From positions 1-7,493 of the IMG/VR virus record IMGVR_UViG_2698536509_000001: a DNA stretch of 7,493 nt; one strand, 5' to 3'. Source of the stretch: a virus. Its lineage: Duplodnaviria > Heunggongvirae > Uroviricota > Caudoviricetes. Positions 6,001 to 7,493 of the stretch are shown one piece after another. The number at the start of each line of letters is the position of its first letter. Position 1 is the first letter of the stretch. A program made the position numbers.

Positions 6001-7493
6001 CGTCTTTACTGATGATTGATAGTGGCTCAGGGGATAATTTGTTTGCAGTTGATGTCAGAGGGATAGATCCAGAGGAAGGGCGGTTTAATAATCTACGGCT
6101 TATTGTTGAACGAAATAATTTATATGTGACAGGATTTGTTAACAGGACAAATAATGTTTTTTATCGCTTTGCTGATTTTTCACATGTTACCTTTCCAGGT
6201 ACAACAGCGGTTACATTGTCTGGTGACAGTAGCTATACCACGTTACAGCGTGTTGCAGGGATCAGTCGTACGGGGATGCAGATAAATCGCCATTCGTTGA
6301 CTACTTCTTATCTGGATTTAATGTCGCATAGTGGAACCTCACTGACGCAGTCTGTGGCAAGAGCGATGTTACGGTTTGTTACTGTGACAGCTGAAGCTTT
6401 ACGTTTTCGGCAAATACAGAGGGGATTTCGTACAACACTGGATGATCTCAGTGGGCGTTCTTATGTAATGACTGCTGAAGATGTTGATCTTACATTGAAC
6501 TGGGGAAGGTTGAGTAGCGTCCTGCCTGACTATCATGGACAAGACTCTGTTCGTGTAGGAAGAATTTCTTTTGGAAGCATTAATGCAATTCTGGGAAGCG
6601 TGGCATTAATACTGAATTGTCATCATCATGCATCGCGAGTTGCCAGAATGGCATCTGATGAGTTTCCTTCTATGTGTCCGGCAGATGGAAGAGTCCGTGG
6701 GATTACGCACAATAAAATATTGTGGGATTCATCCACTCTGGGGGCAATTCTGATGCGCAGAACTATTAGCAGTTGAGGGGGTAAAATGAAAAAAACATTA
6801 TTAATAGCTGCATCGCTTTCATTTTTTTCAGCAAGTGCGCTGGCGACGCCTGATTGTGTAACTGGAAAGGTGGAGTATACAAAATATAATGATGACGATA
6901 CCTTTACAGTTAAAGTGGGTGATAAAGAATTATTTACCAACAGATGGAATCTTCAGTCTCTTCTTCTCAGTGCGCAAATTACGGGGATGACTGTAACCAT
7001 TAAAACTAATGCCTGTCATAATGGAGGGGGATTCAGCGAAGTTATTTTTCGTTGACTCAGAATAGCTCAGTGAAAATAGCAGGCGGAGATTCATAAATGT
7101 TAAATACATCTCAATTCAGTCAGTTGTTGCCGGTCTGATAATAGATGTGTTAGAAAATTTCTGCATGGTGAATCCCCCTGTGCGGAGGGGCGACTGGTGA
7201 ACGGTATGATCTCTTTGATGATCGTAAGCGAGAATACGCGGGTTTGGTGGCACCAGGCCGAACTCACCGGGAGGCACCCGGCATCATGCTGTATACAGAG
7301 ATTAGGCATATATCCAGGCTCCTCATCGCAGGAGCCTTTTTACATGCAAAAAAAAGCCCGAGTGGGTTCGGGCAACAGCATGAGATACTTGCATTGTCAT
7401 TTTTATCGTGCGGATTTTAACCAGGATTCATAAGGCTGCGCAACTGCGCGGCCTTTTTCGTATTTCGGGCTGTAGTCCCCGTGTGTCATTCAG

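Follow-up and report, generated by a model that had tools for sequence, protein, structure and literature searches.

The closest described relatives of the locus analysed here are prophage-encoded small RNAs of O157 strains. EcOnc03, AgvB (EcOnc01) and AsxR (EcOnc02) form a class of anti-sRNAs with a common 3′ region of ~42 nt and differing 5′ 14-18 nt (PMC4104026). Members of this family are transcribed as RNAs of 51-60 nt, of which the variable 5′ region takes up 14-18 nt or more, and sponge activity has been demonstrated for AgvB-GcvB and AsxR-FnrS only (Tree 2014, PMC4104026). AsxR, the anti-FnrS member, is encoded antisense to stx2AB, 282 bp beyond its 3′ end, and forms a dyad with EcOnc27 (Tree 2014, PMC4104026), and a 2021 review speaks of an sRNA "dyad" bookending stxAB. 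On northern blots, EcOnc27 is seen as species of ~235/247 nt (Tree 2014, PMC4104026). Later papers explicitly equate STnc100 with EcOnc27; they also connect STnc100 with PasD, whose gene immediately precedes a sialate esterase.

We analysed a stretch of 7,493 nt (denoted the window; positions 1 to 7,493 of IMG/VR virus record IMGVR_UViG_2698536509_000001, Caudoviricetes). In all probability, the interval following stx1B is the tail-to-tail junction of a known Hfq-binding prophage sRNA dyad, together with a terminator that heads the leader of the esterase gene. In this lambdoid Stx1a phage, the dyad occupies the moron site, with stx1B on one side and the nanS-p esterase/lysis genes on the other. 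The window and its homologous records yield the gene order Q, stx1AB, STnc100 (plus strand), EcOnc03 (minus strand), SASA/NanS-p esterase and holin, the esterase starting ~60 nt past the window end; the convergent sRNA pair is thereby placed between a moron coding sequence downstream of PR′ and a conserved ORF preceding the lysis genes. Many Stx1a prophages (O26, O103 and some O157) carry the 438 bp 3′ of stx1B at 100% identity, as does phage YYZ-2008. RefSeq has no coding sequence in the stx1B-esterase spacer in 25 of 25 identical genomes among the matches listed, and a tRNA and tmRNA search of the window returned none. The features of the locus are as follows.

5820-6776, plus strand: stx1A
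6786-7055, plus strand: stx1B
7134-7347, plus strand: STnc100-family sRNA gene, 214 nt (Rfam RF02076)
7316-7341, plus strand: first terminator, with a stem of 8 bp at 7316-7337 and a T-run at 7337-7341 (TTTT after the stem); found by the pattern scan and as the 3′ hairpin of the STnc100 Rfam consensus
7408-7348, minus strand: AgvB/AsxR-family anti-sRNA, 51-60 nt (Rfam and identity to EcOnc03)
~7408/7407, minus strand: 5′ end of the anti-sRNA, with alternative starts down to ~7402
~7408-7388, minus strand: 5′ variable region of the anti-sRNA
7373-7356, minus strand: stem of the anti-sRNA terminator, 6 bp, GCCCGAACCCACUCGGGC, followed by U8 at 7355-7348; found by the scan and as the AgvB/AsxR Rfam 3′ hairpin
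to 7348, minus strand: U-tail of the anti-sRNA
7419-7414, minus strand: putative -10 box of the anti-sRNA promoter, TAAAAT, read from the sequence
~7437-7443, minus strand: putative -35 region of the anti-sRNA promoter, within the third hairpin
7432-7460, plus strand: third hairpin, with a stem of 10 bp at 7432-7455, loop AACT and then the T-run TTTCGTATTT (scan, folding and conservation)
7467-7478, plus strand: 5′ arm, GGGCTGTAGTCC, of a conserved esterase-leader helix (RNAalifold, 36 distinct leaders)

Both strands of the whole window were scanned with a terminator pattern, and shuffled sequence served as the reference. The scan recovered, each in its place, all three terminator-like hairpins that the original prediction had claimed downstream of stx1B; the T8 of the minus-strand terminator appears on the plus strand as A8 at 7348-7355. 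Over the whole window we counted 13 terminator-like sites versus 6.6 +/- 2.4 in shuffles. For 145 nt, both strands included, ~0.13 sites are expected and three were observed (Poisson p ~3e-4 for one interval; p ~0.02 once ~52 such 145-nt intervals are allowed for). The cluster of three hairpins within 145 nt is well above chance.

On the minus strand, Rfam matched AgvB (RF02702) at 7408-7349 with 56.6 bits, at a gathering score of 56, and AsxR (RF02703) with 46.8 bits, under its gathering score of 63. Because the AgvB score is marginal and the AsxR score is below threshold, the assignment to EcOnc03 rests mainly on sequence identity and not on the models. Fig S4 of Tree 2014 gives EcOnc03 as AAATGACAATGCAAGTATCTCATGCTGTTGCCCGAACCCACTCGGGCTTTT, which is identical to window minus strand 7402-7352, and the DNA of Sakai prophage Sp9 is identical across 7349-7408 and near-identical across 7260-7460, where one substitution, at 7411, falls in the segment that separates the -10 box from the start site. 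The predicted minus-strand RNA at 7408-7349 is therefore, by its transcribed sequence, EcOnc03 of the O157 Sakai prophage Sp9. A read of EcOnc3 from RNase E-CLASH opens with GATAAAAATGACAATG, corresponding to window position 7407, which supports the CGAU start common to AgvB and AsxR. The RNA also has the hallmarks of the family: a conserved 3′ region of ~42 nt, closed by a Rho-independent terminator and alignable with AsxR of 933W, a short predicted transcript (57-61 nt, counting from 7408 as far as the U-tail at 7348-7352), and ARN motifs in the 5′ region, which we read as AAA-AAU-GAC-AAU and which are also marked in EcOnc03 (Tree 2014 Fig S4, PMC4104026).

In Sakai, EcOnc03 gave the third most abundant orphan Hfq-CRAC peak; on northern blots it appears as species of 56/~54/51 nt that are destabilised in an hfq deletion, and its 5′ ends, mapped by TAP-dependent RACE, are primary and triphosphorylated (Tree 2014, PMC4104026). 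These Sakai experiments were carried out on identical DNA, and the same expression, 5′ ends and Hfq dependence would be expected in the window phage. The promoter boxes of the anti-sRNA are putative. A block, CCTGGTTAAAAT, is conserved 5′ of EcOnc03, AsxR, AgvB and the variants that we refer to as type 4. A simple promoter scan missed the anti-sRNA promoter owing to the weak -35 element. The third hairpin overlaps this putative -35 region. In the papers searched, we found neither a later name nor a validated target for EcOnc03, and Tree 2014 alone uses the name EcOnc03. HnrS (EcOnc10-12), considered as a later name, is a different sRNA located ~5 kb downstream.

Comparison with the characterized loci reveals both the common architecture and the individual character of the window RNA. 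EcOnc03 of Sp9 has the identical transcribed sequence (7408-7349) and the same promoter block, and it likewise has a convergent STnc100-type partner (EcOnc28) and an esterase gene downstream. The upstream moron differs, with stx1AB in the window as opposed to tRNA genes and a methylase in Sp9, and the 5′ two-thirds of the STnc100 partner in the window are closer to the Stx2-phage version than to the Sp9 version. AsxR (EcOnc02, RF02703) occupies the same position with respect to the toxin genes, the 3′ end of the window anti-sRNA lying ~293 bp after stx1B, and has terminator, middle section (AGUAUCUCAUGC) and promoter block in common with it. The 5′ variable region, in contrast, reads CGAUAAAAAUGACAAUGCAAG in the window and CGAUUAUUAAAACGAG in AsxR, and by neither its 5′ sequence nor its RF02703 score is the window RNA AsxR proper. 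Since the 5′ region differs and the AsxR score of 46.8 is below 63, sponging of FnrS cannot be assumed for it. AgvB (EcOnc01, RF02702), the anti-GcvB sponge of Sp10 and Sp17, has the architecture and the ~42-nt 3′ body in common with the window RNA. CACAACA, the GcvB-target mimic of AgvB, was sought in minus strand 7408-7349 and is absent, and the 5′ hairpin of the AgvB model is not formed (non-canonical pairs); the window RNA is not AgvB proper, and among the IMG/VR loci the AgvB-type 5′ region constitutes a separate variant.

The plus-strand member of the convergent dyad is the STnc100-family RNA at 7134-7347. The RF02076 model was matched in full (model positions 1-206 at 7134-7347, plus strand) with 190.7 bits at a gathering score of 47. 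The first plus-strand terminator (7316-7341) is the 3′ end of this sRNA, a separate RNA upstream of the plus-strand one originally predicted. Homologues of the window RNA are EcOnc27/sRNA103 of the Stx2 phage Sp5/933W and EcOnc28 of Sp9. The northern probe that Tree 2014 used for EcOnc27, taken as its reverse complement, corresponds to the part of 933W that is homologous to window 7290-7325, and EcOnc27 (sRNA103 in EDL933) is thereby identified as the Stx2-phage copy of the STnc100-type RNA. The window RNA is the Stx1a-phage copy; alignment of 933W with window 7109-7477 gave 82.5% identity. EcOnc27/sRNA103/STnc100 and PasD have the same placement, directly 3′ of stxB and 5′ of the sialate esterase. 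The putative effects on fimZ and espA that have been reported, like the putative complementarity to stxB, concern the Stx2 copy, sRNA103.

With both members of the dyad in place, the original prediction can be judged. Its proposal of a small-RNA locus is borne out by two Rfam sRNA families lying tail to tail, its suggestion of an Hfq link by the identity to EcOnc03, which is Hfq-bound in Sakai, and its mention of prophage sRNAs near EHEC toxin genes by the match of this locus to such published sRNAs; the comparison with known EHEC prophage sRNAs that it had recommended returned the identity of minus strand 7408-7349 to EcOnc03. The RNA that it had in mind was a different one, however, namely an Hfq-dependent plus-strand sRNA of ~110 nt at ~7344-7458, composed of a 5′ stem-loop, an AU-rich middle and the terminator at 7432-7458, and here strand, boundaries and number of RNAs were wrong. 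The supposed 5′ stem-loop (7356-7373) is the terminator of the minus-strand EcOnc03, and what was taken for an AU-rich middle is complementary to the -10 box TAAAAT and to the ARN-rich 5′ portion of EcOnc03. Plus strand 7344-7462 does fold better than shuffles (-39 kcal/mol, z -2.75), and the third hairpin does resemble a genuine plus-strand terminator, but the folding signal is due to two terminator hairpins that are otherwise explained. A promoter search, proposed for the vicinity of 7340, yielded no plus-strand promoter-like site anywhere in 7056-7493, and the 5′ and 3′ parts of 7344-7458 (plus strand) are not co-inherited. The left 88 nt of the proposed RNA are the exact complement of a mapped minus-strand sRNA and its putative promoter, and 7344-7431 is inherited independently of the third hairpin, which alone is kept in VT1-Sakai-type and cassette-less prophages. 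In Table S2 of Tree 2014 (PMC4104026), no plus-strand Hfq peak is given immediately 3′ of EcOnc02 or EcOnc03, the homologous Sakai loci. Plus-strand Rfam matches within the proposed RNA are far below threshold (Leu_leader, 22.4 bits versus 50; SorY; MicC); in a permissive Rfam search of 6900-7493, the matches to Leu_leader, SorY, MicC and suhB over 7347-7469 (plus strand) were rejected as chance hits driven by the terminator hairpins. We therefore regard a plus-strand sRNA at this position as very doubtful indeed. The elements after stx1B and their arrangement are those already published, not a new 110-nt plus-strand sRNA.

The statement that only short ORFs are found here holds: 7197-7433 (plus strand), 7244-7420 (plus strand) and 7100-7309 (minus strand) are without a Pfam match above threshold. 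The record of phage YYZ-2008 (FJ184280) annotates a "conserved hypothetical protein" corresponding to window 7206-7433, and the window ORF at 7197-7433 would encode 78 aa from a GTG start. That a small protein is the product of this interval is nevertheless scarcely credible. The small-protein ORFs match no Pfam family, the one sub-threshold match scoring 16 bits at a cut-off of 27; ORF 7197-7433 spans two Rfam sRNA families and two terminators; and relative to the window, 933W and VT1-Sakai show indels of 8, 2 and 5 nt together with complete replacement of 7290-7431. RefSeq, moreover, is without a coding sequence at ORF 7197-7433 in 25/25 identical genomes among the matches listed. We rejected the protein-coding reading on the grounds that there is no family match, that the indels in the homologues break the frame and that two RNA families lie within the same stretch as the ORF.

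The third hairpin is a predicted plus-strand intrinsic terminator at the start of the conserved nanS-p (SASA esterase) leader. Folded alone, it reaches -18.8 kcal/mol with z = -3.6 relative to shuffles, and its stem of 10 bp, seven of them G-C pairs, is followed by TTTCGTATTT, the arrangement characteristic of intrinsic terminators. The hairpin is present in conserved form in 933W and VT1-Sakai, as it is 5′ of the esterase in all cassette classes, preceding the esterase in all anti-sRNA variant loci as well as in Sakai-type cassettes. Among 157 copies, GCGCGG is changed to GCGTGG in 61 and GGCC to GGTC in 18. These common substitutions and a constant U-G pair keep the pairing on the plus strand only, and on the minus strand the substitutions would give A-C mismatches; the hairpin is thus best understood as a plus-strand RNA element. 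Covariation analysis of the same 157 copies revealed no compensatory pairs, the stem being almost invariant with one-sided G-C to G-U changes only. Further into the leader, the predicted helix whose 5′ arm is GGGCTGTAGTCC is completed by a 3′ arm, GGACTACAGCCC, past the window end, and its Sp9-type variant, GGGCTGCGGTTC...GGACCGTGGCCC, displays compensatory changes.

To view the locus in a wider sample, we gathered IMG/VR loci by way of the anti-sRNA terminator (at least 120) and of the esterase N-terminus (80). The anti-sRNA terminator stem was found in at least 120 IMG/VR contigs, combined with four different 5′ regions; among the loci listed, 58 are of the AgvB type, 23 of the unnamed type 4, 22 of the EcOnc03 type and 16 of the AsxR type. 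stx1B is upstream of 4 EcOnc03-type loci and absent upstream of more than 20 in this sample, and AsxR always adjoins stx2B. In VT1-Sakai and many other prophages, 7290-7431 is swapped for unrelated sequence with retention of the third hairpin, and the VT1-Sakai cassette encodes a different minus-strand RNA that bears a terminator. Conservation in the VT1-Sakai alignment restarts exactly at CTGCGCAA (7436), in the 5′ arm of the third hairpin, and continues into the esterase leader. In another 20 loci, which are without the minus-strand sRNA and without the first terminator, the third hairpin (loop ATG, T8) is the sole terminator and comes after an STnc100/PasD-like body. This pattern shows that 7290-7431 is a replaceable cassette between two conserved anchors, and that the third hairpin is a separate module and not part of the anti-sRNA cassette; it is probably the terminator with which the plus-strand sRNA originally ended.

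A more far-reaching interpretation is that the spacer from stx or another moron to the esterase is an exchange site, in which minus-strand sRNA genes are swapped between a core of STnc100 and the third hairpin as anchors; we consider it unlikely in this general form. The interchangeable genes may be AgvB, AsxR, EcOnc03, the fourth unnamed 5′ variant and an unrelated sRNA of the Sakai Sp15 type, and the anchors may be CACCGGGAGGCACCCGGCA in the STnc100 core and CTGCGCAA..GCGCGG plus the U-run in the third hairpin. The STnc100/PasD-type RNA would then originally have ended at the third hairpin, which cassette-bearing phages would have taken over both for the anti-sRNA -35 region and for back-up termination. 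If this were true, read-through or late transcripts ending at or crossing the third hairpin would constitute a cis-antisense switch, and the anti-sRNA would be removed on prophage induction.

A related but distinct proposal is that plus strand 7342-7458 is transcribed only as STnc100 read-through or as part of the Q-antiterminated late transcript, and that this RNA acts as a cis-antisense partner of EcOnc03. Upon induction it may titrate the anti-sRNA or trigger its cleavage, or it may separate the stx mRNA from the lysis mRNA. The late transcript from PR′ must cross EcOnc03 to reach the esterase/lysis genes and would be fully complementary to it; the third hairpin provides a second plus-strand terminator ~115 nt past the first, and it is where the STnc100/PasD-like RNA of cassette-less loci naturally ends. 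We nonetheless judge a regulatory read-through RNA of this kind to be quite improbable: it is the geometry that speaks for it, the EcOnc27 species on northern blots are ~235/247 nt and not ~350 nt, and the convergent overlap may simply result from the close packing of two genes.

For the convergent dyad with its downstream terminator, the known systems suggest the following scheme. In the lysogen, the anti-sRNA would be made constitutively from the minus-strand promoter (-10 box at 7419-7414), starting at ~7408 and ending at the hairpin and U8 of 7373-7348. It would bind Hfq via its U-tail and via ARN repeats in the 5′ variable region, and this same region would base-pair with host RNAs. By analogy with its relatives, in the pairs AgvB-GcvB and AsxR-FnrS, the EcOnc03 variant may act as a sponge. 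Neither GcvB nor FnrS can be assumed to be its target, however, because its 5′ region lacks CACAACA and is unlike that of AsxR. The RNase E-CLASH partners of EcOnc3 are mostly mRNAs, with GO enrichment for cation/iron homeostasis (mntH, fieF and bfr, which are candidate targets), and since no obvious sRNA stands out among them, the term "sponge" may not fit this variant. Comparison by eye of the EcOnc03 5′ region with core sRNAs produced only matches of 7-10 bp, for example to MicC and MicA, which is chance level. Q-independent transcription, which originates at the STnc100 gene and at the stx1 promoter under Fur control, would be kept out of the esterase/lysis genes by the two plus-strand terminators; after induction, Q-modified RNA polymerase from PR′ would read through all these terminators. 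The insulating role of the plus-strand terminators is suggested by what is known of lambdoid late-gene regulation.

Taken together, the locus is one that is already known, because the minus-strand RNA is sequence-identical to the named EcOnc03 and the stxAB dyad has been published; the finding of the dyad adds little beyond these two reports. What is added is that the Stx1a phage lineage of the window carries the EcOnc03 cassette, and that this cassette lies between two conserved anchors. Genome annotations omit the sRNAs of the dyad: RefSeq has no feature in the spacer, and in one phage record (YYZ-2008) they are covered by a spurious ORF. The EcOnc03 variant is the one present in Stx1a phages of the YYZ-2008/O26/O103 type, which have neither AsxR, as in Stx2 phages, nor the unrelated cassette of the Sakai Stx1 phage. 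Stx phage lineages therefore differ in the sRNAs linked to their toxin genes.

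The anti-sRNA family with a member downstream of stx1B is variable in its 5′ region. Among the IMG/VR loci we found a fourth 5′ variant in this AgvB/AsxR/EcOnc03 family, CGATTATAAAAATGTATATCTCATGCTGTTGCCCGAACCCACTCGGGC, which apparently does not carry an existing name. Of the first 120 viral contigs, 23 carried this variant, which lies ∼150–210 nt upstream of the esterase start (for example in the phage or prophage loci L152, L160, L182, L184, L185 and L203). In one locus, the Rfam AsxR score of this variant was exactly equal to the threshold (63.0 bits).

In VT1-Sakai, the Stx1 phage of strain Sakai (L004, ∼3790–3900), an unrelated minus-strand unit takes the place of the anti-sRNA cassette, and the same replacement is common in other prophages, with 26 IMG/VR class B loci showing it (for example L134, L156 and L188). 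The replacing unit has its own terminator, GCCCGCGTCTCCCAGCGCGGGC followed by U7, together with a TATTAT −10-like box, and the + strand terminator hairpin 3 is kept downstream of it. This unit probably encodes an RNA of the EcOnc08/21/42 type.

A "conserved hypothetical protein" is annotated in the Stx1a phage YYZ-2008 (RefSeq NC_011356) at FJ184280 21273–21500, corresponding to window positions 7206–7433 on the + strand. This open reading frame covers the 3′ half of STnc100 and the entire EcOnc03 gene, and its protein-coding reading is very likely a mis-annotation.

Further candidate RNA elements were located elsewhere in the window. Three Rfam matches at gathering level lie together:
2367–2419, + strand, c4-a1b1
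2380–2456, + strand, isrK
2485–2569, + strand, C4 antisense RNA
They look like a C4 immunity RNA module of the P1/P7 type. The module sits 5′ of antirepressor-like genes in this Stx1 phage. A 2021 review placed the EcOnc53/24B_1 region near d_ant, and the module at 2367–2569 may correspond to that region.

A pattern scan yielded two additional sites:
5310–5337, + strand, promoter-like site (end of Q)
5368–5387, + strand, strong terminator 3′ of the promoter-like site
The Rfam search of the window returned no family match at 5310–5387; the arrangement fits a candidate PR′ and early terminator of the StxS-yielding region in Stx phages.

The nanS-p leader is predicted to contain a structured element:
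7467–7478 and on past the window end (∼3412–3499 in the compared locus L001), + strand, conserved long helix
Its conserved arms read GGGCTGT-AGTCC ... GGACT-ACAGCCC, and in the Sp9-type variant the arms have changed in a compensatory manner (GGGCTGC-GGTTC ... GGACC-GTGGCCC). A small hairpin, CCCGGCCGGG, lies 3′ of the helix and overlaps the Shine-Dalgarno sequence GGGAGGA. Together, helix and hairpin may form a translational or stability element for nanS-p.
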